Shown here piece after piece: positions 2,265 to 56,589 of a stretch of DNA of 62,780 nucleotides. A program made the position numbers and the translations under genes. The notes beneath the pieces are model-generated. The model searched no databases. It was not told where the DNA came from and saw nothing but the letters and a program-made list of their open reading frames with translations. The stretch spans positions 1 to 62,780 of the IMG/VR virus record IMGVR_UViG_3300021197_001333. The stretch is one strand, 5' to 3'. Positions within the stretch are counted from its first letter, which is position 1; the number at the start of each line of letters is the position of its first letter. The stretch comes from a virus. Taxonomy: Duplodnaviria; Caudoviricetes.

Positions 2265-2468
2265 ATGAAAGAGCCTTTATCAGTGTTTGAAATACATAGA
2301 ATAGCTTACATCAATAGTTTGATGAATCGTATTCATAACCATGCAAATTCACTGTATGAGAACCTTATGGACACAGACTTAAGTTCTGCTAGGCAAGACT
2401 TAAAAGAATTAAAAAGCGTTATAGAAGATGTCGAAGGGTCACTAGACGAGGGTTCAAACCCTCGCTAG
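2265..2468 (+). CDS. hypothetical coiled-coil protein, last gene of the plus arm
   Basis: 67-aa ORF whose stop abuts the stop of the convergent giant gene. Confidence 0.6.
   Translation: MKEPLSVFEIHRIAYINSLMNRIHNHANSLYENLMDTDLSSARQDLKELKSVIEDVEGSLDEGSNPR
2448..2463 (+). repeat. GAGGGTTCAAACCCTC near-palindrome, copy at the convergence of both arms
   Basis: Exact 16-mer (7-bp arms, CA spacer), extended by C/G to 2447-2464. Confidence 0.9.
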
Positions 2469-5400
2469 TTACTTATTGTATCTGTATTTGTTTCTTTCCT
2501 TTTCTCTTTGTTCGGCTGCTTTTTCCTTATCCCTAATATAAGCAGGGTTCGCTTCTTGCCTAGCCTTCTTTTTAGCTTTAGCGTCCAATTCTCTTTGGTA
2601 TGCCCGTGTCGGTTTCTCGTAACCCTCCTTAGCCGCTTTCTCTCGATACGACTCTGAGTATCCAATCATATCATATATCTCTTCTATGCCCGCCTCATCG
2701 AGGTTTCCTGCTGTTTCAATAAGAGCGATGAATGGAGCAAGCTGTGCCCCTATACCTATCTCTATTACAGTCTGCAACATAGCCTCCATTTCCTTATCAT
2801 CTTTAGCGGCTTTTTTCCACTTGTTAAATAAAGAGACAAATGGATTTACACCCATGTCTGCAGGTCTTCTATTGCCTGTCATATAATTCTCTATACCCTT
2901 AACGGTTGAGCCTACGAAAGGAGTCATATACACAAGGTTTAACCCCAACATCGCGTTTCTTATCTGCCTCATAGCCTCCTTACGTTCTTCATCATCTCCA
3001 CGTAGTAAGAGACCAAGATTAGACATCGCAACAAACGCTGCGTTGGCTGCCCCTAAGTTTAGGGCGAGTCTTCTTACGTCTTTTTGATTCACGCTTTTAA
3101 TACCTCCTTTTTTTATACTCCTTAAAATATTTGTTGAAGCCTGCATCACGTTGTTGATATACAGGATAGGAGTCGAACCGAACATCGTAAATCCTCTAAC
3201 GATAAAGTTACTGTTCTGTTGAAGGATAGCTCTTTCTGAAGGTCGTCTCGTTTGTTGAGTTTGGTTATACTCATTGAAAGCTTCGACAGCTTTCTCTTCA
3301 CTCATACCATTCTTTATATTACGTCTGTAGTTAGCCATGTATCCCATGACTCCCATGATATCACCCACTATAGTAGGAGCTGCTGCGGATTTTTTAAACC
3401 CTCTTGAAAACATGGCCCAACGAGTTTGTCTATTCTCTAACGCTGTTAAGGTTGGTGAACCTGATTCAAGCCCGGCAAGGTCTCCTTTTACCCCCTGAGC
3501 TAAACGATACCTAAATGTAGGAGACATTTCTGTAGCCATCTTTAGATACTTCCTTGGTTGTGCCATAACAGCAGCATAGTCCATAAGGAACGGAATGATA
3601 TCTACCAACACATTTTGCTTACCACTCTTTCGGAAAGTATAGTTCTCAAAAGCATTGATAAACGAAGTCATCTGCTTACCGATTTGAACTAATCGAAAGG
3701 CTAAAGCATAGGATGTAAACTTAGTTTGTAAAGCATTAAATATCTTTCCTGAAGAGTTTAGAGCATTTTTACCGGAGTCAGGGTTAACAGCATTATTAAC
3801 TGATTGCTTCACCATCTTCTTCATACCTAACACCGTTAGGACTCCATCTACACTATTGGTATTGAATATCGCGTTCAGCTTCTTTGTATCAGCAGCATAC
3901 GCTTTATAATGCTCCATAGTTTTTACATGAGACTCAAGGGCTGAGGTGAAGGACGCTCCCTTTAAGTTTATATCGCTAGTCATATCATTACGGTTCCTTA
4001 ATGCAGGAGCACTTTCCGCATTAAAGATTCCATTAAAGTCTCCGTCAAACAATTGCTTTGGATTGACATCGGCTTGTGTTGTCATAGTAGGGAAATAGTT
4101 CTCTACGTAGTTCAGGTTAACATCGTTTACATCACGATACACATCGTTTACTCCCTCATAATATTCATTACTTAAATACGCTACTACTTTATCTGCAAAC
4201 CCTGTTACATCTTTACCTAAGTACTCTTCAATCTTAATCATCTTTACCCTTGTAAAGCCCATAGCTTCTAGCTTACGGTTTTGAACAGGGTTTAGAGATA
4301 GAGCGTAGAGTCTTAAGAGTTGGTCTTTACTGAACGATTCATTTCTTTTTTTCCCACTGACCGTAGACTTTATCCCTTCTACTTTATACATCTCTGTATC
4401 GAATAACTGTTCTAATACCGCCTCATACCCTAAGCTTCTTAAGAAGTCTTGTTGTGTAAAGTAACCTTTTAGAGAGTTATTATCCATCCTGTTAAGACGG
4501 TTAAACACCTCTTCATAAAGAGTATCATTCAAGGAGTTCATAAATGTCCCTAAGTGCTTAAGACTATCGAACATAGACTTCACCATTTGGGGGCCATCTT
4601 TCCAATCGAATATTTCCCAATATGCCTTTGCCGCTTTAACCTGACCTTTTAATCTAGCCGATAACCCTTTCCCTTTCCCTTCTACCCAATACTCACGAAC
4701 AGCATCTAATAAAGCCCTTCTTTCGTTTAAATCTTTTATAAGAGTTCCATCCTCATGAAACAGCTCAGGGTTAGAAATACGTAAAGCGTCTGTAACTTTC
4801 TGTCTTAAAGCATCTGTCTCTAAAGCTCTTCTCTTCCTTGTTGCGGAGAGCTCTTGTCTAGACATAGACGCAGCCACAGCATAGTCATTAGCTAAGTTCT
4901 GCACCTCTTCTAACGACATAGATGGAAGGTTCTTTACTAAATCTAAAGCCACAGCTATATTAACTAGGCGCTCTTCTTTTGAGGTAAGCGTTTCTCCTGA
5001 CGCACTTTTTGCTAAAGCTACTATCCCTTCGTCTGTTTCTAACTCCTCTGCAAGTAACCTAAACTCTTCCATAGCTTTCTCTTGCTGCTTCTCAGACGCC
5101 ATAGCTAAGGTTAAAGCTTTCTTGAATACCTCTGCAAACGATTGGCCTTGTATATCTAAAGACCCTACTCTGTTTTTCTTGGTATCAGTAATAGTTTTTC
5201 TCGCCCCACGAGTTACATCAGTAAGTAGTTTCTTAAGAACTTTCGCCCTCATATTCTCTCGCTGCTTTTCAATTACTTGCAACACTTTCTCTACCTGAAC
5301 CCTATAGTTATCCTCTGTTACAGCGGCTGTCGCTCGTACTAATCTATTTATAGCCGCTTGACTGTAGTCTTTTGACGTAGGGATATGTGTACGGATAAGA

Positions 5401-8400
5401 TTCCTTAGCTCTCTTTTTATAGCTTGAAGTTCTCTTCCTTTTCTGTTACGTTGAGTAATAGAATTTCTTATAGCAGCTATCTCCTTAGCAACAGAACGAT
5501 TAGCGGTAATACCAAGCGCTCTATCCATAGCTATGACAAGCTCCATTTGAACCTGTTCGCTTTGCTCTTGGTAAACGGGGTTATCACGTAGTATCTGTAA
5601 TGCTTTCTCCCTCACTTCTGCCGGGGTCTTCTCGGTTACTACGGTCTCCGCTTGTACTCCACGACGAGGAAACCTTCTTAATAAAGCTGTATCAGATATT
5701 TCTGATAGGGTAGGATTTGCTTCTCTTAACTCATTGAGCCTAGCCGCTCTCTCAAAAGGTGTCATACGTACTCCTGTACGTTTTACGGTAGGTGCCTTAA
5801 AAGTATCTATCTCAGACTGTATTTGTTGGAACAGTCGTATACCTGCAGGCATACCTCCTACAATATTTCCAAACTCAAATGGAACCCGTACATCACTAAA
5901 CGAATCTACGGTAGCTGCCATCACTCTTTTAATATCTTTCACGCTATGACCCCTTGACTTGAGAACTTCTCTTATAGAAGCCTCTGAGTACCCCTCAGCT
6001 CTTCCCCTTGTTATCACCTCAATCATAGAGTCCTCAGGACTAGGTGGCATAACTTCTTCCTTCTGTTGCCTTCTACCATAAGCAAGTGGGGTAAACTTTA
6101 CCCCATTGTATTTTAGGTAAACCCCTCCTCCTCCTCCACTCTTATTCGTCTTGCTCTTCAGAACGTCGTATCCCATAGGGCCAAACATTCTCCTCACCCG
6201 CTCCATGTGTATGTTTGGTGGAAAGAATCCTTGGTCATTCATACCGTATAACCTTGCTTTCCTGCTAGTCACCGCTATCCTATCATCTTTCTGCTGACGA
6301 ATAGAAGGCTTGCTTGGGTCGAACTCAGTGTTTGTGCCGTCTGCAAGTTTGATTTGGTTTGGCTCGAAAGTTACAATTTCAAATCCGTCATCAAAAATAA
6401 TACCGTCGTGTCCTTCTTTTAAAAGCTGTGCTTTAAACTCCTTGTTTGCTTTTCTTAAATCCGATGGAGAACTATACTTAGTTGTGTTATTCGTAGACCA
6501 ATTGATTAAATCATCCCACTGCTGCTTAGTAGCTTGGTAAGGGTTCTCCATGTTCAAGAAGAAAGCTCTCCCTTCCGTAAGCTTGTCTTTTGCTTGCGGG
6601 TTTTGAAGTCCGCTTATAAAAGCATATTGGTCAGCCCCTGACTTTGAGTTAGAAAAGAAAAATCCTAACTTACTTATGGGTGTATTAGTTAATTGACCTA
6701 ACTTTTTCTTATCGAAAACATCAAAGTCTTGTGAAGTACCGTGGTATACCACCTTCGGCTCTCCATTCTCATCCACCACTTTACTATCCCCAAACCATTT
6801 CTTAAACGCAGGTGTATTAACTAAATCTTGCTGTTCTGAGGTTAGGTTAGAAGGTACCTTCTGCTGACGAGGGGCAGGCTTCTTCTTATTCTCTCGTCTA
6901 CGACTTAGCACCTCACCCCATTCCTCTTTAGACCAATCTTTTACCTCAGATGTATTGTGGATGCTGTCATCTAACGCACCCTCATCTACCAATACAAACT
7001 CTCCATTCTCTCGCATACCCCAATTCCTAGTAGCGGTAAAGTCATTCCATAATATATTATAATCCATGAACCCTTCTAGCTCAAGCTCTCTCATGGCATC
7101 CTGAAGTTCTGCCGTTTTATTTTTAAAATCTTGAGGAGTAAACTCTTTCAGTGGCTTTAAGAACTTATTAACCTCCGTGTCATTACGGGGTACGTTCTCT
7201 ATAATAATATAATCTAACCCCTGCTCTTCGAGTTCAGGCACAAAACTACCTAGATAGTTTACATCTCCAAATCCTAAAGCGATATTCTGCTCCAACCCCT
7301 TAGGAGTTTTTGCAACCTTGATAACATTTTTCCCGTCAGGGTGCATATATACGATTCTCGATGAGCCACCTTTAGATACCACCTCTAGCTCATTTACATC
7401 TAAGACGTCTGAGATTACCTTCTGCTGTCTTCCTTCTGTCTGCTTCTTGATATACTCCTCAGGAGTTAAATCCTTAGGTAGTATCTCATTAAGAGATTCC
7501 ACATCAGCCTCTTCTATTTCCCTACCCTCACGAGTCTTCCTCGCGATAGTATTCATAAGGTCTATTACACTCTCATCTGTCTTACCAAAGTCCGTCCCTA
7601 ACTCAATACCAAATCTAAGAGCTAAGTCTTTAAAGAACTCTATGATTGCATTCTTAGCAGGTTTAGATAGTTGCTTGTAGTCTTTTGATGACGCCAATAT
7701 ACCAATCAACTCAGCAAGCCGTTCTTCGTTTTGGAACTGTGCTTGGTCTCCTGTATACTTAGCAGCGAAGGCATCAATCTTTTTTGCTAACGCACTATTT
7801 TTCTTAAGGCTTTTACGTACAGATAGCATCATTTTCTCTGCCGCCTTAGCTGCACGAGCATCTGTCTTTACTGAGTTAAGAAAAACAGCATGGAAAACCT
7901 CATGAGCCATCGTGCTTTCTGTAGCTGAAGATAAGTTTACGTGGATAACATTTTCGGTAGGTAGATATTCAGCTCTTCCCGCACGGCCTACAGCTTTTAA
8001 AAACTCTTCGTTACTCTCGTGGAGTAAGATACGTGTCTTAGGGAGAATCTTTTTTATAGCCTTAGCCGCTTTTCTAGCCGCTACTACGACCTTATTACGA
8101 CGGACTTTGCCTTGGGGAGTAAAGGTAAACTTACCTTTTTTATTTATACTAATATTCCCTTCTATCTTAGTAGGTGTTGATTTTTTAACAGAGGTATCAG
8201 TTCCTAATGACTCTTCTAAGTCACGAGCTTCTGACATCAGTTTCTCTTGTTCTATAAGTTGTCCTTGTAGTTCTGCAATCTCAAAATCATTGTCTTTACT
8301 TACCTCCTCTTGAAATTTAGTAAGCTTCTTTTTGTCATTTATACGTTGAGCAATACCTGCGAGCAAAGCTTTCTTACGTTTAGCTTCAAGCGTTCCTTCT

Positions 8401-11400
8401 CGAAAAGCTTTAACATCTTCTTTAGTACCCTTATCTACTACCTCTATGGTTTCTTCCTCAACATCCTCCGTCTCTGTAACTTCGTCTTCGGGCGTAATCT
8501 CTTCGGTAGTTTCTGTGATGACGTCTCCTTCTCCCACTCCTTCGCCATCTGTGGCTTGTTCTTGTACATCCACCTCCGTTGTGCTTGACTCTTGAATGGC
8601 ATCTTCTGTAGTTTGTATTGCCTCCTCAGGGGCAAAGGGTTGTAATTTTTCTTCAAGGAGTATAGAGGTTTCTTCGTCATTAACGACCTCGCTATCCTTT
8701 AAAAGTTTAGTGGCTTTACGTAAAGAAATATTTTCTATATAATTTAAAAACTCTGTCTTAGAGTACATAGTATTTCCAATACGGTAACTAGGCACAGTAG
8801 TACGTTTACCTATCTTACCAAAATCAAAATTAATAGACTCGACAGGTGACTCTGATAACTCATTAGTTCTTCCTATCTCTGCAATCTCTTTGTTAACAGC
8901 GGCAAGCTCTTCACTAAATATACTTCTAGAGTTAGTGGTAGCGTCAAGTCCTGCACGGATATCTAAAAGCTCCATCAATCTAGTCTGAACTTTTTTATTT
9001 ATACCTAAACGAGAAGGACCTGTAATATCAAGTATCTCCTGAGCCTCTTTTCTGAGACCTAAGTTTTCTAATATCCTTTGGTTTTGTTCCGCAGAAATTT
9101 TTCCTAACTTAAGCATCCTATTGCTCCACGATTGAATCTGTGTGTCCGAAGCTCGCTCACTCGCCATCAGCTTCATATTCATCAGATTTTCTGCTATCCT
9201 TTGATTATAATTTCCACGAGTAGATTTATATATATTCATAGCAGCAAAAGGAGTTGCCATACCTATCGACCCTCCGGCTTCTGCTATAATTTCTTTTACC
9301 GAAATTTCGTCTCCCACATTTAATTGAGCAAGAAGTTCTCCTGTAGCTTCGAAGGGAGCGTCAAGTGCTACAGCCTCCGCTGCAAATGCTCCAACTTTTT
9401 TTGCTTTACTTGCTACCGCGACAGGTTTAAACACTTTACCTGCAAGACCCGTCATAAGGAAATCCATTAAAGCAATAGGGATACCACGTTTTAACCCACG
9501 CTCTCTACCACGTTCCCATACTTTATCATCTTGTAGAGCTTCTCCTGCCTCTTCAGCGTTATTCATGTTATATCCCAACTCTCTACCCGCATCGAGAATA
9601 CCATTGGTATATTCTAATACAAGGTTAGTTGTTGCATATCCTGCCCGAAGACCATACATCCCTCCACTAATTAAACCTGCTGCCGTACCTATTCCCGGCA
9701 CTATACTACCCACACCTCCACCTGCTGCCGCACCTGTTGCTACAAAACTTGGTATAAGTTTCATTCCATAAGGAAGTATCTGCGCCAAAGAAGCTCCGGC
9801 CCACGTAAGTATTACCTCCGCAGGGTCACGCCTTAAAGCACTTCTTACTTCACGACTAAACCCCTCTTCTGCAGAGTTAAATCTAGACATAGCTCTCGAC
9901 TGCCTTCCGTCAACCCCATTTAGATAGTCTGTCATTTCTTCTGCAGCCCTATTCATATCCTCTGCTTCCTCTCCATACAATCCCATAGCTGAATTAAGTA
10001 TAACGTTACCCGCTTGACCGCTTCTATACCCATCCATAAACGCTACGCTAAACCCTTCAAGATTATCCACAAACTCTACTCCGATATCTTTATTGGCTTT
10101 GGCATCAAAGTAAGTTAGAGCCGTTTCATATTGAAAAGCGGCAAGTTCTTTTTTTCTTTCAAGGGAGTTTTGAATCTCTACTATTTCATTAAGTCTAATC
10201 TCTTGCGCCTCATTAGCAGGTTGGTATGTATTTAGTTGGTCTAGAGTAACACCAAATTCATTTAAGACAAGATTATTTAATCCCTTTTCAATAGTCTTAG
10301 CTTCATAATTTACATTGGCCGCCTGTTGAGCCGATGCTCGATGTTTCTTTTCAAGGTAGGTATCAAAGTTATCTTGCACCTCCATATAGTTCTCGCTATC
10401 TATTGTCTTCCACAACTTAGCTTCTTCTTCATCAAGAGTATCAATAATCTCCTGTGCATCACCACGCAGGCTTCCGTCTTCTCTAAAATACATTTTGTAC
10501 GCCTCTTGCTCCTTAGGGGTAAGGTCATCGTACTGTCCTTCGTCACCAAATAAAGTATTCTTTTGAATTGCTAATTCCTCTTCAAGAAACATACGAGTTT
10601 CTTTTGCCTTTAAATACTTATCGTAAACTTGACGGTCAGAGAGATAGTCTCTCCCATATTCATTGTAATATTTCTGAGCTTCTAAGTCTAAAGTGTTTAC
10701 AGTCTTCCAAGAGCCTTTTGCAAAAGCTTCAGCCTCTTCTTGAGAGTCGAATGTAAATACCTCATTACGCCTCTCAGCCTCTGCAATAGCCTCATCCATA
10801 CCAAGCTCTAACCAATCCTCTGCTCTAGGAGAAGAGCGCTGTACGGTGCTCCTAGGGAACAGGGTGGGTGCTACTTTATGAACCCCATCTTGTTCATAAG
10901 ACATGAACTTTACTGTGGAGTGAGTACCATCTTCATTCCATCTTTGGCTATCTCGCATCTCTCGTGCTCGCATAGCTTGAGCCATGGCATCCTCATTCTT
11001 TTCTCTCGCTTTTCTACGTTGAGACGTTGTAAAGATAAGTTCTAAGTCTTTAGCTTTTTCTTCCATTGCATCCCGCTCTGCTAAAGCAGCATCCTCTACT
11101 TTCCTCTTATCTTCTTTTATCTTCTGCGCTTCTGCATCAAATGGTACCCCATCCCACTGCTGACCTCTTGCATCTGTGAGAGGAGCTTGAGTAGACGCTC
11201 TTTCAAAAGGACCTGCATCGTCAGTTACAAGACCTTGTTGTATAGATTGTAATAAAGGTTCAGGAGCTTCTTCGGACGAGTCCAAAGAACCATCTTCCAA
11301 AGTAGATTCCATAGGCTCGTCTTTTTTTTTTAAGCCTAGGTTAGGAAAGAATTGCTCTGAAAACTCTTCAGGCGTTTTAGTATACAGCCCACTTTTATTA

Positions 11401-24685: not shown

Positions 24686-24724
24686 TAAAAAAAAATAAAA
24701 GGACGAGGGTTTGAACCCTCGTCC
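24686..24724 (-). terminator. terminator after the major capsid gene, built on the GAGGGTTCAAACCCTC motif
   Basis: Minus strand GGAC-GAGGGTTCAAACCCTC-GTCC followed by a long T tract; motif at 24705-24720. Confidence 0.8.
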
Positions 24725-45483: not shown

Positions 45484-45706
45484 TAGTGATGACCTTTTCA
45501 TCAATCATCATAGTGTGACCCGCACCCCTGTCGTAGAAGATGACGTCACCCGATTTAATCTGAGTAACCTCAGTGCCCGGAGAGATAACAGTGCCTTTCC
45601 TATAGCGGAAGTCACCAACGTCTTGCGCTGAAAGAACTAACCCACCCGAAGTTTTTACCTCCTCTGCGATAGGCTCGATAGCTATATATTTTCCTATTGG
45701 TTTCAT
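45449..45706 (-). CDS. groES: co-chaperonin GroES
   Basis: MKPIG..I.IEP..E.KTSGGL.L...G.VIS.G.....IKSGD.I.Y...IIRE.DV. Confidence 0.85.
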   Translation of the reverse strand: MKPIGKYIAIEPIAEEVKTSGGLVLSAQDVGDFRYRKGTVISPGTEVTQIKSGDVIFYDRGAGHTMMIDEKVITIIREPDVVVVV

Positions 45707-45864
45707 AATTTACTATATGTTATTACTGTTTCAAGATTACATTTCTCATTAGGACAAGCAAGGTTAGAAACGATACCCTTCTCGTCAAGGATGTCGTAGT
45801 CCTCATATGAGTGGTCTCCACCCCATATCAAAGGAGTAGAGCAGGTAGGGCAAGCCATAGTCAT
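45703..45864 (-). CDS. small zinc-ribbon protein between groEL and groES (53 aa, not in the ORF track)
   Basis: MTMACPTCSTPLIWGGDHSYEDYDILDEKGIVSNLACPNEKCNLETVITYSKL; ATGA overlaps with both groEL and groES. Confidence 0.65.
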   Translation of the reverse strand: MTMACPTCSTPLIWGGDHSYEDYDILDEKGIVSNLACPNEKCNLETVITYSKL

Positions 45865-47456: not shown

Positions 47457-47493
47457 AAGATTAGATTTAATTTGAAACAAAGGTATGATAGAA

Positions 47494-47915: not shown

Positions 47916-48100
47916 AGTAATAGTTTTTAATACAAGGCTAAGGTACGCTAAAAAATTTTGTTAGATATGTATAGTGTTTGGGTTCCCCCCCACTCCACGC
48001 GACGAGGTGCGATTCCCAAAACGATTTTTTTTTTGCGCTCTGAGATAAAAACCTTTGCGCCCGTCCGAAATTTTTGGCGTTTTTTCTAGACATCCACACC

Positions 48101-48171
48101 GCCCCATTGCGCCCCATTGCCGTCCGTCCGTCCGTCCGTTGTTTGTCCGTCCGTCTGTCCGTCTGTCCGTC
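48101..48171. repeat. GCCCCATTGC x2 followed by a degenerate (YGTC)n tetramer array
   Basis: Directly visible tandem repeats in the non-coding strand-switch region. Confidence 0.85.
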
Positions 48172-48385
48172 ATTACTTCGCGCCCTCCTTTGGTGCTATG
48201 CTCAGAGAGAGAGAAAGAGCAACAAGGGTTTAAACCCTCACAAGTGTTTACAACCTCCTCTTTGCCTCTGTCCGACCTTTTGCACCCTTAACAATTTGCC
48301 GTCATTCATTCGTTTGTTTGGTGCGCTCAAATTAGTATTATACTATTAATGTACTAAGAATGTAAATTAATTGCACATTGTTGTA

Positions 48386-48413
48386 GAATTGCACTAAAAT
48401 TGTACTATATTTG
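48386..48413 (+). promoter_or_regulatory. early promoter 1 (GAATTGCAC-N11-TATATTTG)
   Basis: TAnnTTTG -7 element; same upstream block and spacing as at 51251 and 54030. Confidence 0.7.
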
Positions 48414-48472
48414 TACATGCGGCAGCAATAATGCTACGTAAAACAGCGTAAAACGCTAAAAATCAATAAGTT

Positions 48473-49141
48473 ATGAGTATTTTATTACCAATCGAAACAC
48501 AATTTGTTAATTCCTTTACCTATGAAGGAGGGAGTTTACAACAGTTGCACACATTACAAACGGCTGAGGGCAATTTGAAAAAGAAGCAATTTGAAAAATC
48601 ATTAGCCCAAGCCCCCCAAGTGAGAGCCGCCCTAATCCATTTCGCATCTAAGGACGGGCAAAGGCAGTTAGCGGATTCGGGGTTGAGTTGGAACAAAGGT
48701 GAATTTGTGGAAAAAGCGTTAAGATATTCCGACCGTTCACAAGCTAATTTGCTTGTAAGAATAGCTGACAGAAATGATGCACACCCCGAACTTATCACTA
48801 AGTATAAGCGTGAACAGACGCGACTAGCTACAGCAGGACAGAAAGCCCCGCGAAGCATCCAACATTTTGACAAATGGAGTCGCGCTTTATTAGACCAAGC
48901 CAACGAAACGGGCGAAACTATTGAGGACGTTGTGGAGGGTGCTGAGGTCGAAGCTACAGCCGAACCGAGCAACAGTACGAACATGGCGCAGTTTCGTTTT
49001 AAACATCCCATACACGGTAATATCGTGGTGAACATCGACGAAAATGGTGCCATAACAACTACTAACACAGTTGAGCATATCGGCGAAGCACTTGCAACGT
49101 TCAGAGCAATGATACAAACCCCGTTAGAGGTTGCCGCATAA
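48473..49141 (+). CDS. first early protein, unknown function
   Basis: 222-aa ORF downstream of early promoter 1. Confidence 0.7.
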   Translation: MSILLPIETQFVNSFTYEGGSLQQLHTLQTAEGNLKKKQFEKSLAQAPQVRAALIHFASKDGQRQLADSGLSWNKGEFVEKALRYSDRSQANLLVRIADRNDAHPELITKYKREQTRLATAGQKAPRSIQHFDKWSRALLDQANETGETIEDVVEGAEVEATAEPSNSTNMAQFRFKHPIHGNIVVNIDENGAITTTNTVEHIGEALATFRAMIQTPLEVAA

Positions 49142-49153
49142 CAGCTATAAAGT

Positions 49154-49169
49154 GAGGGTTCAAACCCTC
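49154..49169 (+). repeat. GAGGGTTCAAACCCTC motif fused to hammerhead 1
   Basis: Exact copy, extended AGT...ACT (49151-49172). Confidence 0.9.
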
Positions 49170-49171
49170 AC

Positions 49172-49224
49172 TGCTGTCGGACAGTGTGTACTGTTCCTGA
49201 TGAGTTCAAAAGAACGAAACAGTA
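49172..49224 (+). ncRNA. type III hammerhead ribozyme 1 (predicted cleavage after C49178)
   Basis: Stem III UGCUGU/ACAGUA with GUC site; stem I GGACAG/CUGUUC, loop UGUGUA; core CUGAUGA (49197-49203); stem II GUUC/GAAC, loop AAAA; GAAA (49216-49219). Confidence 0.92.
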
Positions 49225-49246
49225 ATTTAATTTAATATATTATATT

Positions 49247-50182
49247 ATGGGTGTAAAATTTGAGAATGACAGTAACGCGAGTCGTGGTGAGATGTCAAGC
49301 TACCACAGAAAGCCGAGTTTTAGAAACTACAACGGCGGCGCGTCAATTAGCGATGTAGCAAACGTTAAACCGATTGACCGCGATGCCATGCGCATGTGTT
49401 CAGCCCTAGAAGTGAGGGCAAAATTTACAATCGGATTTGAGATTGAAAAAAACCGACTCGGACGCGGTTCAGTTCGTCCATATCCTTTATTCTGTGGGTT
49501 CGAAACGGATAGCAGTTGCGGTTATGAGGCTGTGACCAATATTTTACCACTTATCGGGGCGTGTGTGTGGCGTGATAAGGTGTACAATATGTTTCACGAG
49601 GCTGAGAGGGTTATTGATGACCAATGGAGTCCGACTGACTACCGTTGCGGCGGCCATATGACTGTAGCTGTCGAGGGCTTAAGCGGTGCTGAGTTACTTG
49701 AGAAACTTAGACCAATATCGGGCATTATCCTTGCGCTATATCGCAGACGTTTAAACCATCACTATTGCAACGAAAATATGACCATGTTGCCACGTGGACA
49801 TGCAAACGTGTACAACGGCTCAGGACGTAGCAGTGTAGCGAATGTCAAGGAAAATACTGTTGAATTTCGCATCCCTTCGCGCATCCAAAACGTGAACACT
49901 TTAAAAAGACGTTACGAACTGATGTACGTTTTAATAGATAGCGCAATGAAAGGGCACAGCCTAGCAAAGGTACAGCGTAGATACACGCCGATTGTACTAG
50001 CCATGTACGATGGTGATGTTGATAAGGCTAACAAGGTTATGCAGTTAGGTAAAGCGTTTTGTAAGTTCATTAAGAGTGGCAAAATTAACGCTGATGTGTT
50101 ACCCTTCGTCGATAGACACGGACGCAACACAGACCTTTACACGAGGTGTGCAAGGGAACTAGAAAACCCCTCACAATGGTGA
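49247..50182 (+). CDS. putative amidoligase (COOH-NH2 ligase, glutamine-synthetase-like fold)
   Basis: IGFEIE, DSS...EAVT, CGGH.(T)V, TVEFR motifs. Confidence 0.7.
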   Translation: MGVKFENDSNASRGEMSSYHRKPSFRNYNGGASISDVANVKPIDRDAMRMCSALEVRAKFTIGFEIEKNRLGRGSVRPYPLFCGFETDSSCGYEAVTNILPLIGACVWRDKVYNMFHEAERVIDDQWSPTDYRCGGHMTVAVEGLSGAELLEKLRPISGIILALYRRRLNHHYCNENMTMLPRGHANVYNGSGRSSVANVKENTVEFRIPSRIQNVNTLKRRYELMYVLIDSAMKGHSLAKVQRRYTPIVLAMYDGDVDKANKVMQLGKAFCKFIKSGKINADVLPFVDRHGRNTDLYTRCARELENPSQW

Positions 50183-50196
50183 GGCGGTAATGGGGT

Positions 50197-50212
50197 GAGG
50201 GTTCAAACCCTC
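50197..50212 (+). repeat. GAGGGTTCAAACCCTC motif fused to hammerhead 2
   Basis: Exact copy, extended GGT...ACC (50194-50215). Confidence 0.9.
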
Positions 50213-50215
50213 ACC

Positions 50216-50266
50216 GCTGTCGGGTGATATATTTCACTCCTGACGAGTCCATAAGGACGAAACAGC
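50216..50266 (+). ncRNA. type III hammerhead ribozyme 2 (predicted cleavage after C50221)
   Basis: Stem III GCUGU/ACAGC with GUC site; stem I GGGUGA/UCACUC, loop UAUAUU; core CUGACGA (50240-50246); stem II GUCC/GGAC, loop AUAA; GAAA (50259-50262). Confidence 0.93.
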
Positions 50267-50305
50267 AATCTAATTAACGGGTGATGGCCTACCATTAAAG
50301 ATGTT

Positions 50306-51171: not shown

Positions 51172-51203
51172 GGGAATGAGGGTTCAAACCCTCGTTCCTT
51201 TCT
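51172..51203 (+). terminator. terminator-like hairpin containing the GAGGGTTCAAACCCTC motif (51178-51193)
   Basis: GGGAAT-motif-GTTCCT followed by a short TTCT tract, just after a stop codon. Confidence 0.55.
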
Positions 51204-51250: not shown

Positions 51251-51278
51251 GAATTACACAATAATTAAACTATATTTA
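51251..51278 (+). promoter_or_regulatory. early promoter 2 (GAATTACAC-N11-TATATTTA)
   Basis: Same architecture as 48386 and 54030. Confidence 0.6.
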
Positions 51279-51304
51279 CACAATTAATAAACAATCTAGA
51301 AAGA

Positions 51305-51642: not shown

Positions 51643-52026
51643 ATGGGAACACAATCCTACAAAAACGGCTATGCCGACAAGTTAATTTTTTGGAACGAGC
51701 AACTTATTTTATCTCAAACCAAATCTATTGAACAACCACGATACAGCGAAGAGAAGTGCAAAAAATCTATACTTTACTTTACTGAGAAGCATGAGGAGTG
51801 GAAAGCTCAGAACGAGGGTTCAAACCCTCTAACCTATTACACGGGCAGTGAACTTAAGTGGAGTACAGAAGATGTACTGCGTAACGCAGAGCATTTAGAC
51901 ATCAAGCTAACAGACGAAGAAGCAGAGTCTATACTTATCGCTACGTTTGAGAACAACGATGCCATCATGGAATTTATCAATGATGAGATATTAGAAACCA
52001 TAAACTTTAAAAGGAGAACAGTATGA
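51643..52026 (+). CDS. hypothetical protein containing a motif copy at 51814-51829
   Basis: 127-aa ORF; the motif reads EGSNP. Confidence 0.6.
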   Translation: MGTQSYKNGYADKLIFWNEQLILSQTKSIEQPRYSEEKCKKSILYFTEKHEEWKAQNEGSNPLTYYTGSELKWSTEDVLRNAEHLDIKLTDEEAESILIATFENNDAIMEFINDEILETINFKRRTV

Positions 52027-52184
52027 GCAATAACATGGAAGATAATAAAATGAAAGAACAAATCAAGGGGTTAATTGAGTACGCCAAAAACCCAAAGTAC
52101 TCAGAAGAAGGAGATAACTATTTATCTGACGGACAAATGTTAGATATTATGTTGGAACAATTAGAAAAACTATATAACCAATGA
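52023..52184 (+). CDS. hypothetical 53-aa protein (not in the ORF track)
   Basis: ATGA overlap with the upstream gene; ...YLSDGQMLDIMLEQLEKLYNQ. Confidence 0.45.
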   Translation: MSNNMEDNKMKEQIKGLIEYAKNPKYSEEGDNYLSDGQMLDIMLEQLEKLYNQ

Positions 52185-52600
52185 AACAAGAAGATAACGA
52201 ATACAAAACATGCCCCGATTGTTGCTATGATATCCTCGATGACGAGGGTGATGTAATGGAACATGAGTGCATATCAGATAATGAAATGATTGCAGAATTT
52301 ATGAGTGGACAAAGAGTGCTACCTGACGAAGATGTTTACAATATGCCAACGCATAATAATTTATGCTACGGAGTAAACGAACTACAATACGACACCTCAT
52401 GGGATTGGTTGATGCCCGTAGTAGAGAAGATAGAGAGCTTAGGATATGAACTTATAATAGCTGAAAGTAGATGTAAAATAAATCACAATACAGACCATTC
52501 GATAGAAGAAGTAATAAATATAGATATTATTGATAGCAAAAGAGAAGCAACATACCAAGCAGTAGTAGAATTTATTAAAGAACATAACGATGAACAATAA
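52181..52600 (+). CDS. SWDWL-family paralogue 1
   Basis: DNEMIAEFM...YDTSWDWLMPVVEKIE...YQAVVEFIK. Confidence 0.7.
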   Translation: MKQEDNEYKTCPDCCYDILDDEGDVMEHECISDNEMIAEFMSGQRVLPDEDVYNMPTHNNLCYGVNELQYDTSWDWLMPVVEKIESLGYELIIAESRCKINHNTDHSIEEVINIDIIDSKREATYQAVVEFIKEHNDEQ

Positions 52601-52670
52601 CAAATTAATAGCAAGAAACACCCCTAAAATAGGGGTATTATTAACCACGTATATATGCTATCACATATAA
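52590..52670 (+). pseudogene. truncated SWDWL-family start (MNNNKLIA...)
   Basis: First 8 codons match the N-termini of paralogues 2 and 3, then diverge and stop after 26 aa. Confidence 0.4.
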
Positions 52671-52772
52671 AAGACGCACAACTCTTAGAATTATATGCAA
52701 TTAAATATAACTAAATGAGCCGAATAGATAAGTGAATCAACTCACCTAATAGCATAACTAAAAGTGAATAAA

Positions 52773-53042
52773 ATGAAAGACAATAAACTAATAGCAGAAT
52801 TTATGGGATATGTATATGAAGATGATAGATTCTTTATGGAAGATTCAGAAGGAGTTAGATTGTATGAGTATCTACCTCACGAACTACAATACCACTCCTC
52901 ATGGGATTGGCTGATACCCGTAGTGGAGAAGATTGAAGAGCAGAACGAGTTAATAGGCGCACATATATTATCAACCGATATAGGTAAAACCCATAAACAA
53001 GTAGTAAGATTTATTAAAGAATATCAACACCAAAACCAATAA
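52773..53042 (+). CDS. SWDWL-family paralogue 2
   Basis: MKDNKLIAEFMG...YHSSWDWLIPVVEKIE...VVRFIK. ATG 52773 preferred over GTG 52764. Confidence 0.7.
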   Translation: MKDNKLIAEFMGYVYEDDRFFMEDSEGVRLYEYLPHELQYHSSWDWLIPVVEKIEEQNELIGAHILSTDIGKTHKQVVRFIKEYQHQNQ

Positions 53043-53046
53043 CAAC

Positions 53047-53319
53047 ATGACTAAAAACCAAGTAGAAATGTACATCAGGGAAGACCTAGATAGTACACCA
53101 CGACACAACTGTGCGGCACTCGCATCAGCTATCAACGAGGTAGCAGAAGAGGTTGGACACGATAGCTATGCTCTAATGGAGTTGCTATTATGCAACACAC
53201 CGATACCCTCTCTATACACACATAGCGACGGCATCCATACTAGGAATGGTAGGGAGTTAATCGAAGCTATGCAAGAGAAGTACGAAGAAATATTAACCTA
53301 TAACTCATACACACCATGA
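53047..53319 (+). CDS. hypothetical protein
   Basis: 90-aa ORF between paralogues 2 and 3. Confidence 0.6.
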   Translation: MTKNQVEMYIREDLDSTPRHNCAALASAINEVAEEVGHDSYALMELLLCNTPIPSLYTHSDGIHTRNGRELIEAMQEKYEEILTYNSYTP

Positions 53320-53666
53320 ACGATAATAAACTAATAGCAGAATTTATGGGATACCCTCCTATGACAGATGCGGTAGATGACAGAACAATAGCATATGATG
53401 TTGGAGGAAGTGTCATGAATATAAATAATACACATAATGAAAACGATGATAATGTTTTCCACCCTGACGATATGAAGTTCCACACCTCATGGGATTGGTT
53501 GATACCCGTAGTAAATAAGATTGAGATGGAGTGTGAGGGCGTACCGATTGAACTGCTAGACTGTAATTTATACAGTGAGATAGGCGAGGTGTACCAAGCC
53601 GTAGTAGAGTTTCTTAAAGACCAAGTATGCCATGTTGATTTGGAAGATTGGCAAAAACAAGATTAA
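53316..53666 (+). CDS. SWDWL-family paralogue 3
   Basis: MNDNKLIAEFMG...FHTSWDWLIPVVNKIE...YQAVVEFLK. Confidence 0.7.
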   Translation: MNDNKLIAEFMGYPPMTDAVDDRTIAYDVGGSVMNINNTHNENDDNVFHPDDMKFHTSWDWLIPVVNKIEMECEGVPIELLDCNLYSEIGEVYQAVVEFLKDQVCHVDLEDWQKQD

Positions 53667-54029: not shown

Positions 54030-54057
54030 GAATTGCACAATATATGCACTATATTTG
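54030..54057 (+). promoter_or_regulatory. early promoter 3 (GAATTGCAC-N11-TATATTTG)
   Basis: TAnnTTTG element with the conserved upstream block. Confidence 0.7.
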
Positions 54058-54078
54058 TACAATCAATAAACAATCAAT

Positions 54079-54094
54079 GAGGGTTCAAACCCTC
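54079..54094 (+). repeat. GAGGGTTCAAACCCTC motif in the 5' leader of the GATase-GGCT gene
   Basis: Exact copy between promoter 3 and ATG 54112. Confidence 0.9.
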
Positions 54095-54111
54095 ACTAAA
54101 CAAACAACACA

Positions 54112-55200
54112 ATGTGTGTAATTATTATCAAACAAAAGTCTAACATCATCTCGAAAGAGACGTTAGAAAATTCGGCACGAATTAATCCTCATGGACTTGG
54201 GATTACGTTCCTCGATACCTTCGAGACCACCTATCATAAGTCATCAGAGTACGAGTCATTATTAACCGAGCGACCTTTTATTGCTCATTTTAGATATGCT
54301 ACAGTCGGGAAGGTTGGGTTATCCAACACACACCCTTTTGTATGTGGTGAGTTAAAGCATGAGTTACTTATGCAGAACGGAACTATTAAGGGGTTGGGAA
54401 CTAAAGAGAAATGCGACAGTAAAGTGTTAGCAGAAAATCTAGGTGATATACCTCGCGAACAATGGAAGGCAGAGTTAAGTAAGTACGATTCAAGATTCGT
54501 TTCCATCAACACCAAAGACAAATCTTTTCAGATATATAACAGAGATAAATACACCAAGCGCGATGGTGTGTGGTACTCTAAGTCAAATGTATTGCAAGAG
54601 AATGTCGTGGCTGTTTACGGAACGCTAAAGAAAGACAATAGTAACTATCACAATTACTTAAGGTCATCAAGGTTTTTAGGCAGTGGAGAGACACAGACTA
54701 AATACCCTTTAATCATCAGTGGCTTACCCTATCTTCTATCTTCGGAGGGAGTAGGACACAATGTAGAGGTTGATGTGTTTAAGGTCAATGACACCACCTT
54801 TGCCGACCTTGATAGGTTGGAAGGACATCCTACATGGTATCAGAGACGAGAGGTTCCAATTAAGATGAACGATGGTAGAGTGATAACGTGTTGGATATAC
54901 TTCAACGACACACAACCATTAGGCAATCACCAATGTCATAAAACATATGCGCCTCAACCTATTGTAAAAAAGTTTCCTTTTTCTCATTACGAACCGATGC
55001 AAAGAAGTGTTGATAATCATAATCAATCACGATTATGGGATGACATATTTCCTCAAGAGGAAACAGATGACAAGCCTTATTGCATTGAGTGTTACAACGA
55101 CTTAATCAAAGATGAGTTGTCGGGAGATAGCTTTCAATGTATAGCGTGTGGAAGCGAGTACACCACAGAAGAAGTTTCAAGTAATCATTTTAATATATAA
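54112..55200 (+). CDS. class II glutamine amidotransferase fused to a gamma-glutamylcyclotransferase (AIG2-like) domain and a C-terminal zinc ribbon
   Basis: N-terminal MC nucleophile, NPHG.G, AHFRYAT.G...NTHPF, QNG, DS; then VAVYGTLK...LDRLEGHP.WY.R; CIEC...CIAC. Confidence 0.85.
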   Translation: MCVIIIKQKSNIISKETLENSARINPHGLGITFLDTFETTYHKSSEYESLLTERPFIAHFRYATVGKVGLSNTHPFVCGELKHELLMQNGTIKGLGTKEKCDSKVLAENLGDIPREQWKAELSKYDSRFVSINTKDKSFQIYNRDKYTKRDGVWYSKSNVLQENVVAVYGTLKKDNSNYHNYLRSSRFLGSGETQTKYPLIISGLPYLLSSEGVGHNVEVDVFKVNDTTFADLDRLEGHPTWYQRREVPIKMNDGRVITCWIYFNDTQPLGNHQCHKTYAPQPIVKKFPFSHYEPMQRSVDNHNQSRLWDDIFPQEETDDKPYCIECYNDLIKDELSGDSFQCIACGSEYTTEEVSSNHFNI

Positions 55201-55463: not shown

Positions 55464-55693
55464 TTAAAGTAGAGTTTCTCTCTCAAGATGGAAATAAAAC
55501 TCATATAGCCAACTTCATAGATGAAGATATGTATATTGAGTGTATTGAAATTCTTGAGTCTCAAGCAAAAAAAAATAACGCTATTCTTATTGAGACTATC
55601 GAGGGTTTAAAACCTCGTCTTAAGTGGGAGGGAGTAGATAAAATTATTCATCAAGGTTATTGGTATGCCAAGTACACTGACCTTCAACATTAA
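55433..55693 (+). CDS. hypothetical protein containing a variant motif at 55601-55616
   Basis: 86-aa ORF. Confidence 0.5.
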   Translation: MEQNQTQTTLIKVEFLSQDGNKTHIANFIDEDMYIECIEILESQAKKNNAILIETIEGLKPRLKWEGVDKIIHQGYWYAKYTDLQH

Positions 55694-56329: not shown

Positions 56330-56397
56330 AAAGTTGCACAAAATTTGTACAATAATTAAACATGTTGTATATTTACAATCCAATTAAATTAAATGTA

Positions 56398-56589
56398 ATG
56401 TCAAACACAAAAACACTTCTTGAGGAAACTCAGGACGACGACAAATACTTGGACGATGAGTACCAAGCAAAGTCTCAGCGAGGGTTCAAACCCTCTCCAC
56501 ACGATATAGTATTAACTGATTTTTTCGAGTACCTATTTACGGGCAAGAGAGAACCTAAAAAAAGAAACAATGAAAGAGGAAATCTTTGA
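56398..56589 (+). CDS. hypothetical protein containing a motif copy at 56480-56495
   Basis: Start probably ATG 56398, downstream of TATATTTA at 56368-56375; the motif reads RGFKPS here. Confidence 0.5.
   Translation: MSNTKTLLEETQDDDKYLDDEYQAKSQRGFKPSPHDIVLTDFFEYLFTGKREPKKRNNERGNL

Follow-up and report, generated by a model that had tools for sequence, protein, structure and literature searches.

The palindromic repeat of this phage is best read as an RNA hairpin that is carried by the sense strand and marks cistron boundaries and transcript 3' ends; we give this reading a probability of about 0.55. The window, i.e. the whole stretch of DNA analysed, is a complete phage record of 62.8 kb, and the phage is a member of an uncultured clade of Bacteroidota-type podophages. 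The exact 16-mer, GAGGGTTCAAACCCTC, occurs eight times in it, seven times on the plus strand (2448, 49154, 50197, 51178, 51814, 54079 and 56480) and once on the minus strand (24705-24720), against a mean of 0.00 in 100 dinucleotide-preserving shuffles. When up to two mismatches are allowed, ten sites are found (20 matches, both strands being scored) where 0.03 are expected. The earlier note on this DNA had counted at least ten places, and the exact and two-mismatch scans agree, with eight exact copies and two variants, at 48224 (AAGGGTTTAAACCCTC) and 55601 (GAGGGTTTAAAACCTC), both of which have a symmetric TA at the centre. The copies cluster in the early region rather than along the whole genome, and their orientation changes from one gene arm to the other; the arms diverge from an origin-like, GC-rich repeat region at 47.95-48.33 kb. 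On the coding strand of the genes around it, each of the eight exact copies has CA at its centre. The claim that the repeat always lies in the sense orientation holds within the window but not in the relatives: two of the ten copies are flipped in G001, the nearest relative, and the centres in G002 are mostly the opposite one. The sites of the window and the elements attached to them are:

2448-2463, plus strand: exact copy within the final codons of ORF 2265-2468, where the plus arm has its convergent end; a longer imperfect hairpin surrounds it (about 2432-2478; -22 kcal/mol, z -4.18, 0 of 200 shuffles as good)
24700-24725, minus strand: predicted intrinsic-terminator hairpin, GGGAC-(24705-24720)-GTCC, GC-rich with an 11-bp stem (-23.3 kcal/mol, z -5.81), downstream of a virion structural gene (24741-26198, 485 aa) that probably encodes the major capsid protein
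24686-24699, minus strand: T-run TTTTATTTTTTTTT, directly after the 24705 hairpin
48224-48239, no strand assigned: variant copy AAGGGTTTAAACCCTC in the intergenic region where the arms diverge; the first early promoter lies about 160 nt downstream of it, and the local fold is not significant (z -0.82)
49151-49172, plus strand: hairpin GTG-(49154-49169)-CAC, 13 nt past the stop codon of E1, the first early gene (48473-49141); fold z -4.29
49171-49225, plus strand: type III hammerhead 1 (Rfam RF00008, 37.8 bits, E 2.3e-5)
50194-50215, plus strand: hairpin GTG-(50197-50212)-CAC, 15 nt past the stop codon of an amidoligase-like gene (49247-50182); fold z -3.06
50214-50268, plus strand: type III hammerhead 2 (Rfam RF00008, 43.8 bits, E 4.4e-7)
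51172-51199, plus strand: extended hairpin GGGAAT-(51178-51193)-GTTCC, which includes a U.G pair on the sense strand and precedes TTTCT (-19.5 kcal/mol, z -4.69), 52 nt upstream of the promoter-like repeat 51251-51282, so that the order is stem-loop, then promoter
51814-51829, plus strand: exact copy within ORF 51643-52026 (EGSNP), with no stem extension
54078-54095, plus strand: hairpin T-(54079-54094)-A between the promoter-like repeat 54030-54061 and the ATG of the GATase/GGACT gene (54112); fold z -5.21
55601-55616, plus strand: degenerate copy GAGGGTTTAAAACCTC with one purine-purine mismatch, 48 nt before ATG 55665; fold z -1.71
56480-56495, plus strand: exact copy within the small ORF 56362-56589 (RGFKPS), 74 nt before the start of a DnaA-domain-IV-like gene (56570)

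The copies within ORFs use two reading frames, EGSNP at 51814 and RGFKPS at 56480, as had been noticed from the letters, and the constraint at the nucleic-acid level deduced from them is supported. Copies had also been placed at the junction of the two arms and in the leader of the GATase gene; the variant at 48224 lies in the intergenic region where the arms diverge, the copy at 2448 where they converge, and the 54079 copy ends 17 nt before the ATG of the GATase gene. Many of these places recur in relatives: the region of 48224 holds a copy in every whole genome examined, often with a variant centre (it reads TG in two other samples), the 2448 copy has orthologues in G001, G004 and loci L029, L030, L044, L046 and L060, the 54079 copy in G001, G004 and G006, and the 56480 copy in G001, G004, G002 and G003, there in the type proper to each genome. 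The copy at 51814 coincides with the start of the homologous match in G005 and G010 (a Met in G005), and since the match begins there, this copy is probably a former gene boundary that became fused.

The anatomy of the hairpin and its conservation are apparent from site statistics pooled over 124 sites in 11 genomes, counts that overstate the sample size because orthologous sites in related genomes are not independent. The core 16-mer folds into a 6-bp stem with a 4-nt loop (about -8 kcal/mol). At least three Watson-Crick flank pairs extend it beyond the 16-mer at 21% of the 124 sites, compared with 1.7% of random places, and the mean run of flank pairs is 1.30 at sites vs 0.35 at random. That the flanks extend the stem with sequences that differ by site, as the earlier note had it, is plain in the window (GGGAC/GTCC, GTG/CAC, GGGAAT/GTTCC). 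Read on the sense strand, the 39 extended stems contain 22 G.U against 8 A.C (one-sided p 0.008 against 1:1), and the unextended flanks show the reverse (73 vs 130). The half-changed core sites, counted by hand, give no strand signal (about 8 G.U and about 9 A.C on the sense strand). Six of the ten window sites fold better than all 200 shuffles; the other four do not. As to placement, 79 of the 124 sites are intergenic by crude gene calls, though 85-96% of each genome is coding, and 31 of the 124 have an ORF start 14-24 nt beyond their end, as do 3.8% of random places. In seven genomes, automatic strand calls give 56 sites with CA in the sense orientation and 10 with TG, G002 (2 CA, 7 TG) being the exception.

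Two further associations tie the palindrome to transcripts. The first is with termination. A GC-rich hairpin with a U-run was found at 24705, weakly at 51178 (TTTCT) and at none of the remaining eight window sites; the earlier note had counted two terminator hairpins with the palindrome as their core. In 6 of the 11 genomes, the tip of the terminator that follows the capsid gene is formed by the genome's own palindrome. The second is with self-cleavage. The copies at 49154 and 50197 lie directly 5' of the two type III hammerheads, as described from the sequence, and the amidoligase-like gene has one hammerhead on each side. Both matches span the model in full (positions 1-54 of 54) and have GUC ahead of stem I, and both score below the RF00008 gathering score of 48.5 bits (the whole window has no Rfam match at gathering score), a shortfall that the alignment attributes to loop lengths (longer in stem I, shorter in stem II). 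Reading from this alignment, the predicted cuts fall after C49178 (between GCUGUC and G), 9 nt past the palindrome, and after C50221. In a core-motif pattern scan of the 60 nt downstream of each palindrome, the genome's own palindrome was directly 5' of a hammerhead at 10 sites in G000, G001, G004, G007 and G009, and RF00008 matches at E <=0.01 occur in 7 of 15 related records.

We thus propose that the core 16-mer would form a stem-loop on the sense strand of phage transcripts, and that its use would depend on its surroundings: (i), with site-specific extra pairs and a U-run, it would be the tip of an intrinsic terminator (24705 and, more weakly, 51178); (ii), 8-12 nt before a hammerhead cut (49154, 50197), it would become the 3'-terminal hairpin of the upstream RNA after self-cleavage; and (iii), as a bare core in short spacers, ending 14-24 nt before a start codon (54079 and many of the relatives' sites), it would block 3' exonucleases and separate the A-rich translation start region from upstream sequence. 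The anatomy is observed; the protective and insulating action of the hairpins we infer. An RNA hairpin signal, one of several forms suggested for the repeat, is the best supported of them, given the G.U extensions, the hammerhead adjacency, the terminator tips and the hairpins of varied sequence in L045 described below. Against it, some copies have no evident part to play on RNA: several are inside long ORFs, and another precedes the first early promoter. None of the RNA runs searched contains the phage.

Each related genome has a palindrome of its own. In all 11 whole genomes there is one dominant palindrome of 16-17 bp, with 7-14 perfect copies, at places that are often orthologous between genomes. 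The earlier note had taken absence from close relatives as a sign of a recent selfish repeat; the result is a third outcome, neither presence nor absence, in which the places are kept and the sequence is swapped. G002/G003 and L048/G011 are natural pairs of this kind. The primases of G002 and G003 are 97% identical and the flanks of their shared palindrome sites 86% identical, and the palindromes differ at 50 of 96 bases over six shared sites. Loops are unrelated among relatives (AGCC, GCAAU, UCA or free tetranucleotides). One relative, L045, carries ten hairpins of different sequences, each just upstream of a conserved leader that ends at an ATG, with a mean folding energy of -11.25 vs -2.8 kcal/mol in controls and sense-strand loops that include five GNRA and one UUCG; another, L047, has a Y-shaped element in five copies, among which compensatory changes are seen. 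The exact sequence of the palindrome is therefore dispensable for the RNA role, because relatives use other stems and one of them ten different hairpins.

Identity within a genome may thus be a second layer, one of concerted evolution. By analogy with the promoter-early stem-loop (PeSL) cassettes discussed below, its most likely source would be short-patch ectopic conversion and recombination among copies; a genome-specific hairpin-binding factor is the alternative. Traces that bear on this are found in several genomes. L031 differs from L048 by a 430-bp insertion with two ORFs (read from the sequence) and direct palindrome repeats on both sides, and an extra gene in G001 has a palindrome and a hammerhead on each side. 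Centres are flipped at orthologous sites, and one and the same half-changed position recurs at several sites of a genome (positions 1/16 in G003, 2/15 in L044). A conserved helicase gene contains a copy made in place, with amino acids changed; as the G005 orthologue matches at 10 of 16 positions, about six changes and no indel are needed. The exact rewriting of 16 nt between conserved flanks in G002 vs G003 is poorly explained by conversion or drift. It is conceivable, if rather improbable, that the hairpin is a genome-specific identity tag on transcripts or DNA, either read by a factor or rewritten by templated conversion. The candidate reader would be a fast-evolving phage factor, with the KorB-like E1 as the lead, and all copies would switch together when a lineage changes specificity. 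Such a tag would tell the phage's own messages or genome from those of co-infecting relatives, a heteroimmunity at cistron boundaries, and would explain why G002 and G003 differ at every copy despite their nearly identical primases.

About as doubtful, in our view, is the proposal that the palindrome is a double-stranded DNA operator: a fast-evolving dimeric regulator would bind the many 16-bp sites and control early transcription by roadblock or long-range silencing, like KorB on plasmid RK2 or the stoperators of Cluster A mycobacteriophages, sites and protein co-evolving. The single specificity per genome, switching between close relatives, would be expected of such a system, as would the constant total length of 16-17 bp whatever the loop size, the fixed arms around a free 4-nt centre in G010 (and partly in G009 and G003) and the pyrimidine-purine step at the centre of the TTCAAA-type families. 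The palindrome of G011, ATTAATCCGGATTAAT, is perfect, AT-rich and without an RNA fold (0.0 kcal/mol). The best candidate for the binding protein is E1, the first early gene in 10 of 10 genomes examined and hypervariable: its identity is 89% between G000 and G001, which share a palindrome, 56% between G000 and G004, which differ by a one-position change, and 44% between G002 and G003. The E1 model (pLDDT 85) has, in its helical part, as its top VIA-align match 1r71, the KorB DNA-binding domain with operator (Z 5.6 over 101 residues), followed by a second KorB entry (Z 5.0), Spo0J (Z 4.6) and VirB (Z 4.0). However, according to the tool, Z 5.6 falls in a range common for helical models, and Foldseek, a PDB profile search and HMM/Pfam searches gave no match for E1. 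Nor do sites and protein co-vary throughout: L048 and G003 share the arms GGCTCG with only 21% identity between their E1 proteins, and G000 and G007 differ at one half-site position with 26%. The window has no match to the ParB N-terminal domain (PF02195), the distance of the sites to the four promoter-like repeats is not fixed, and a duplex site leaves the G.U bias, the ribozyme adjacency, the terminator tips and the L045 hairpins unexplained.

Two other candidate binders had been named. The DnaA-domain-IV-like protein (56570-56896) found no support as the specific binder: the residues of its putative recognition helix, placed by alignment to E. coli DnaA, are the same in two phages with different palindromes. 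For the winged-helix ORF 45043-45483, which overlaps ORFs on the minus strand, Pfam gives no match.

We regard as unlikely the idea of a selfish, functionless short repeat that spreads and is homogenised by template switching or conversion at hairpin-forming DNA and is tolerated mainly between genes, in the manner of REP, RPE or Correia elements. Fast turnover between relatives would fit such a repeat, as would the in-place helicase copy and its amino acid changes. So would copies in the same frame and with shared flanks in acidic or Thr-rich linkers of three ORFs in G006 and G010, centres flipped at orthologous sites between genomes, and the tandem copy of G001 with its perfected 20-nt palindrome. 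Yet the terminator tip, the hammerhead neighbour and the gene leaders are kept as places in genomes with different palindromes, the stem extensions around the palindrome are specific to the site, the spacing to start codons is regular, and relatives that lack identical repeats keep hairpins in their intergenic spacers. Neither a Y1 transposase nor an integrase is encoded: the window has no match to PF01797 (Y1/IS200-like transposase) at E <=0.01, where control genomes do match, and none to PF00589 (tyrosine recombinase/integrase).

A role of the hairpin as single-stranded DNA in replication or recombination, such as that of a signal for priming or annealing on one template strand, we consider very unlikely. 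Its orientation would follow the direction of replication, here parallel to transcription, and it does switch where the arms diverge from the origin-like region; genes for a primase, a Sak-type annealing protein and a PDDEXK nuclease are present in the phage, and DNA hairpins also tolerate G.T wobble. But this would leave the intergenic placement, the distance to start codons, the U-runs and the ribozyme adjacency without a reason, and the copies are concentrated in the early region. Mimicry of a host element (tRNA T-arm, CRISPR repeat or host REP) is the least credible reading and is weakly refuted: it would explain different palindromes with different tail genes, GGUUCAAACC resembles a T-arm, and G002 and G003 may have different hosts because their tail and giant proteins are very different (38-60% identity), but a T-arm has a 5-bp stem and a 7-nt loop (T54-psi55-C56), whereas the best pairing here gives a loop of 4 or 6 nt, too short by one to three bases, no tRNA or tmRNA was called by ARAGORN in the window, relatives' loops are unrelated, and of 401 genomes sampled from one order a single one has the 16-mer, once. 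Among the matches listed for species-representative genomes, the hits are scattered over unrelated phyla with one match per stretch, and a few records have several stretches. The T-loop mimicry entertained in the earlier note found no support.

How does a sense-strand RNA hairpin compare with known systems? Dispersed, replicon-specific DNA sites offer one precedent. KorB operators on RK2 and parS sites number about a dozen short palindromes over a replicon of about 60 kb, and co-vary with their binder; Cluster A stoperators are asymmetric 13-bp sites for the immunity repressor of temperate phages, orientation-biased and lying between genes. The number of sites and the replicon size are similar here. 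The ParB N-terminal domain and an integrase are lacking, however, the fold match of the candidate E1 is weak, and the G.U bias, the ribozymes and the U-runs have no counterpart there. Stoperators proper were set aside, the sites here being palindromic and the window having neither an integrase match nor a repressor that could be recognised. Integron attC sites (no PF00589 match for an IntI-type tyrosine recombinase in the window) and REP elements with RAYT (PF01797 absent from the window) find no support either.

Hairpins on RNA offer others. In lambda-type phages, boxB is a hairpin of about 15 nt on early transcripts that differs between phages and matches the phage's own N antiterminator. 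Small size, early transcription and divergence between related phages are common to both; ten or more sites are present here vs two in lambdoid phages, the hairpins here are themselves terminator tips, and neither boxA nor an arginine-rich N-like protein was identified in the phage. The RNase III sites of T7 early mRNA and the REP elements of bacterial operons are intercistronic hairpins found at 3' ends, where they protect processed messages, and the hairpin proposed here would likewise end up 3'-terminal on its message. Cleavage, however, would be by self-cleaving ribozymes or other nucleases, hairpins of 6-12 bp being short for RNase III, and the phage has no RAYT-type transposase (no PF01797 match).

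Intergenic stem-loops repeated in phage early regions are already known. The PeSL cassettes of T4-type phages were reportedly treated by Arbiol et al. in 2010. In the account by Comeau, Arbiol and Krisch (2014, PMC4122927), PeSLs are short stem-loops known from T4-type phages, repeated along the direction of transcription in intergenic spaces of early, plastic regions, with a stem consensus that varies between phage lineages. The whole cassette joins the stem-loop to an early promoter, a ribosome-binding region and a start codon. They adjoin gene gains, losses and swaps between close relatives, as do the L031 insertion and the G001 extra gene, and the order stem-loop, promoter, start codon is found at 51178, the sole copy with it. 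PeSLs have a loose consensus where the core here is exact over 16-20 nt. Most copies here have no adjacent promoter (at 54079 a promoter-like repeat precedes the hairpin), close relatives carry another sequence at the same places with flanks unchanged, copies also serve as late terminator tips and ribozyme neighbours or lie inside ORFs, and the phages are unrelated podoviruses with Bacteroidota-type hosts. In the literature searched, we found no clade that combines a per-genome exact hairpin, often orthologous places, in-step rewriting between near-identical relatives and ribozyme coupling. Such concerted rewriting implies either an unrecognised sequence-specific binder of hairpin or operator, or a very efficient short-patch conversion, and the genome-specific 16-mers could be lineage markers in metagenomes.

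The ribozymes, too, have a parallel. In prophages, several hammerheads flank single genes, which implies the processing of long transcripts of the phage into RNAs of gene length (Perreault et al. 2011, PMC3088659); the passages on these clusters make no mention of a fixed genome-specific hairpin directly 5' of each ribozyme or of the same hairpin used elsewhere without one. The hammerheads of the window, one on either side of the amidoligase-like gene, follow this layout. If the RNA reading is true, it would explain, in a compact model open to test, how Bacteroidota-type phages without SD sequences cut their polycistronic messages and make them stable, with the hairpin and hammerhead unit as a natural insulator and processing module.

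The earlier note had described a repeated near-palindrome in the window, and this proved correct: GAGGGTTCAAACCCTC occurs in eight exact copies, of which only that at 24705 is on the minus strand and the other seven are on the plus strand, against an expectation of 0 from 100 dinucleotide-preserving shuffles. Allowing up to two mismatches gives ten palindrome sites, adding 48224 and 55601. In all eight exact copies the central CA lies on the local coding strand. The varied contexts that had been claimed were likewise recovered: each of the copies at 49154 and 50197 has a type III hammerhead directly 3' of it (E 2.3e-5 and 4.4e-7, both below Rfam's gathering score), the copy at 24705 forms a strong hairpin with a T-run 3' of a 485-aa virion structural gene, that at 51178 a hairpin with an extended stem, and that at 54079 stops 17 nt upstream of the ATG of the GATase/GGACT gene; the intra-ORF copies use two reading frames. 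The palindrome finding is real, and wider in extent than first noted.

The window record is a whole virus of 62,780 bases, rated complete, with PHROGs matches to portal, terminase and structural genes and a primase carrying a BT4734-like N-terminal domain. The divergence point of its gene arms lies near 47.5-48.4 kb and their convergence point at 2468/2469. GroES-like and GroEL-like chaperonins are encoded at 45449-47480 on the minus strand, and chaperonins of this kind are also found in the cultured elemo phage. The closest named phages are Flavobacterium 'elemo' and Cellulophaga phages, with terminase identity below 60% (46% for the listed elemo phages), and one uncultured GenBank record is closer to the window than any of them. 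The phage collection searched held no cultured member of the clade, and no palindrome family was found within the first 50 kb of Flavobacterium phage elemoA_7-9A (46% terminase identity); this phage is thus no experimental stand-in, yet it provides a negative control for the repeat finder.

An exact scan of IMG/VR for the window palindrome returned 19 stretches. Among these relatives, a 55.6-kb genome (G001) has ten exact copies and one with a CG centre, several of them at places orthologous to window copies, and it carries an additional gene with a palindrome and a hammerhead on both sides. The primase is encoded at 39 loci, and de novo searches (perfect 6-nt arms, at least three copies) found a palindrome family in 17 of them, each with one dominant palindrome that differs between genomes; at locus L047 the search recovers a palindrome only as part of a Y-shaped element. 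No family was found by this criterion at 21 of the 39 loci; these do not demonstrate absence, since many are short or do not include the early region. When ten further whole records were compared beside the window, all eleven genomes proved to have one dominant palindrome of 16-17 bp in 7-14 perfect copies; with up to two mismatches permitted in the arms, the eleven together have 124 sites. An apparent second family in G006 was rejected, being a collagen-like coding repeat.

Dominant palindromes of the whole genomes (G000 is the window)
G000 and G001: GAGGGTT-CA-AACCCTC
G004: GAGAGTT-CA-AACTCTC
G007: GGGGGTT-CA-AACCCCC
G006: GTGTCTT-CA-AAGACAC
G002: GACGCCT-TG-AGGCGTC
G003: GGCTCG-NCAR-CGAGCC
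G005: AGTTCGG-TCA-CCGAACT
G009: GGGGAC-AGCC-GTCCCC
G010: GTGTCG-NNNN-CGACAC
G011: ATTAATCCGGATTAAT

The palindromes change in concert at fixed places. G002 and G003 are close relatives (primase 97% and terminase 95% identical), and at six orthologous early-region sites their 40-nt flanks are identical at 415 of 480 positions and their palindromes at 46 of 96; of the six base pairs in the stem, three are exchanged. The window and G005, with primases 84% identical, have unrelated palindromes. Intermediate states are also seen: GGGGG..CCCCC, GGGGG..CCCTC and GAGGG..CCCCC stand side by side at locus L044, and G003 varies between G and A at position 1 and between C and T at position 16 over many sites. 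In G001, two palindromes lie in tandem within an ORF (46520-46580; L014 4380-4430), one with a flipped centre; the second, GAGGGTTCAATTGAACCCTC, has been perfected into a palindrome of 20 nt, as would be expected from snap-back or template-switch synthesis.

A role in RNA, as a sense-strand hairpin at cistron boundaries and transcript ends, is the best-supported reading of the palindrome, and from the sequences compared here we would give it a probability of about 0.55. The evidence is as follows: (i), flanks extend the stem by at least three pairs at 21% of sites as against 1.7% of random places, and in 39 extended stems read on the sense strand there are 22 G.U and 8 A.C pairs, the background being 73 and 130. 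(ii), of the ten sites in the window, six outdo every one of 200 shuffles in folding; the other four do not. (iii), the terminator that follows the capsid gene is tipped by the genome's own palindrome in 6 of 11 genomes and is a generic hairpin in four; that of G005 keeps a GAGGG..CCCTC hairpin, the early region of this genome being of another type. (iv), 79 of the 124 sites are intergenic by crude gene calls, in genomes with a coding fraction of 85-96%, and 31 of the 124 end 14-24 nt upstream of an ORF start, as do 3.8% of random places.

Further evidence for RNA comes from two related loci with structured elements in similar positions. L045 has ten hairpins, no two alike, each 5' of a conserved leader that ends at the gene ATG, and among their loops, read on the sense strand, are stable GNRA and UUCG ones. 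This leader, of 30 nt and TCAGTTACAAACTTAAATTATACTACAATG-like, occurs in ten copies directly upstream of start codons (L045 797-4861). The second locus holds the Y-shaped element:

L047 2260-4620: Y-shaped element of 50 nt, five copies before gene starts

It has GCGGAG/CUCCGC as its outer stem plus a pair of hairpins, and the loop of the second hairpin, in which GAUUCGCUCC is found, is conserved; its copies show compensatory changes and are sited like the L045 hairpins. It had no Rfam match and may represent a structured RNA or a ribozyme that is not yet described. Structured RNA is thus a recurrent feature between the early cistrons of this clade, with the identical hairpins as one of its forms.

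The coupling of the hairpins to hammerheads also supports the RNA reading. A core-motif pattern scan placed the genome's own palindrome 8-12 nt upstream of a predicted hammerhead cut in five genomes (G000, G001, G004, G007 and G009), and 7 of the 15 related records contain a match to RF00008, the Rfam type III hammerhead model. Folding of 56-nt stretches shows a second possible partner for the 5' strand of stem III of the hammerhead, namely bases that lie upstream of the palindrome; this alternative pairing may possibly act as a switch. In the window, two hammerheads (49171-50268) bracket an amidoligase-like gene (49247-50182) whose motifs are seen by eye in the translation, with no Pfam match. 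A fusion of a GATase class II domain and a gamma-glutamyl cyclotransferase (GGACT) is encoded at 54112-55200; the two genes together are reminiscent of a peptide-tagging system predicted for phages. Cleavage at both predicted sites would leave the intervening RNA (49179-50221) with 5'-OH and 2',3'-cyclic-phosphate ends. Such ends are joined by RtcB-type ligases, so that a circular or religated form is conceivable. Among RNA runs, none was found to contain the early region. Four DNA contig runs gave strain differences, gene-content joints and contig breaks only, contigs being unable to reveal RNA ends; in run X3 the breaks fall at palindrome-plus-hammerhead repeats. A block of three to four paralogous small genes in tandem (52035-53666; repeat families D4, D6 and D9) is absent or rearranged, at joints, in contigs from other samples.

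The chief rival, that the palindrome is an operator bound as double-stranded DNA, is serious, if unlikely. The elements do have the look of a dimeric binding site: length is constant at 16-17 bp, the centre holds a pyrimidine-purine step, and in G010 the arms are fixed and the centre is free. The G.U excess of the extended stems, which favours RNA, does not extend to the half-changed core sites (about 8 G.U vs 9 A.C by hand count). Also at odds with a plain RNA hairpin are flipped centres at orthologous sites and copies inside long ORFs, one of which was created in place in a conserved helicase gene, with amino acids altered and no indel; the G005 orthologue agrees with it at 10 of 16 positions. 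The perfect, AT-rich palindrome of G011, ATTAATCCGGATTAAT, occurs at seven sites (596-6219) without an RNA fold, stands 1-4 nt before the start-codon ATG at three of the seven, and at one site adjoins an older GGCTCG-type hairpin. This palindrome may belong to another class of element and is possibly an operator in DNA proper.

Two features of the window bear on its promoters:

48386-48417, 51251-51282, 54030-54061 and 56331-56362: 32-nt promoter-like repeat, upstream of four early gene blocks
2469-11525, minus strand: giant 3018-aa ORF, with weak PHROG matches only, of unknown function

The repeat, of the form GAATTGCAC...ACTATATTTGTACA, looks like a Bacteroidota promoter (TTG ... TAnnTTTG), in keeping with the -33/-7 consensus. 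Virion RNA polymerase promoters, N4- or crAss-like, were rejected: the 3018-aa ORF, which differs greatly from its counterparts in relatives, lacks a DFDxD-type motif, and a PDB search found no sequence relative for it, so that nothing points to such a polymerase. Early promoters of crAss-like phages are described as lacking a common motif in the part of the preprint consulted (bioRxiv 10.1101/2020.03.07.982082). T-loop mimicry and membership in REP/RAYT or integron systems were also rejected for the palindrome. Membership in a ParB system is unlikely, a search of the window having found no ParB N-terminal domain, and so is host-repeat or CRISPR-repeat mimicry, judged by sampled genomes of one order and by the matches listed among species-representative genomes.

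Two candidates may account for the identity of copies within a genome. One is a genome-specific binding factor. E1, the first early gene of the window (48473-49141), is hypervariable among genomes, and the best structural match of its model is the KorB DNA-binding domain, a weak one (Z 5.6). Foldseek found no PDB match for E1 at E <=0.001, a PDB profile search and Pfam with 14 homologues returned only noise, and PHROGs gave one weak match of unknown function. A language-model search led to clusters of DUF3102, with 148 shared features and a score of 0.93, lower than is usual for genuine family members; DUF3102 is uncharacterised in the papers found to name it. A search for more E1 loci returned two, neither new; L048 and G003 have arms in common and E1 only 21% identical. 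The DnaA-domain-IV-like protein (56570-56896; PF08299, E 1.4e-9), present in 19 of 19 tabulated loci and 28 loci overall, was rejected as specificity factor: its HSSIYHGYNK stretch, which we take to be the DnaA recognition helix, is the same in L051 and L058 despite different palindromes. It might bind the GC-rich non-coding stretch at 47950-48330, a likely replication origin with many CCGT/GTCCGTCC repeats at the divergence point of the gene arms.

The other candidate is conversion with cassette recombination, as proposed for the promoter-early stem-loop cassettes (PeSLs) of T4-type phages in the parts of PMC4122927 consulted. Palindrome-flanked insertions, the copy made in place and the centre flips would favour it, as would the recurrence of one variant position at several sites of a genome. 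Among the phage genes are those for an annealing protein of the Sak type and a PDDEXK nuclease. Full-text literature searches found no description of such a genome-specific hairpin system. Across the clade, hairpins specific to each genome mark boundaries of cistrons and probable ends of transcripts, are coupled to hammerheads and evolve in concert. Like the T4-type PeSLs, they lie next to gene insertions, and the system is a variant of the intergenic stem-loop cassettes already known, the variant itself being new.
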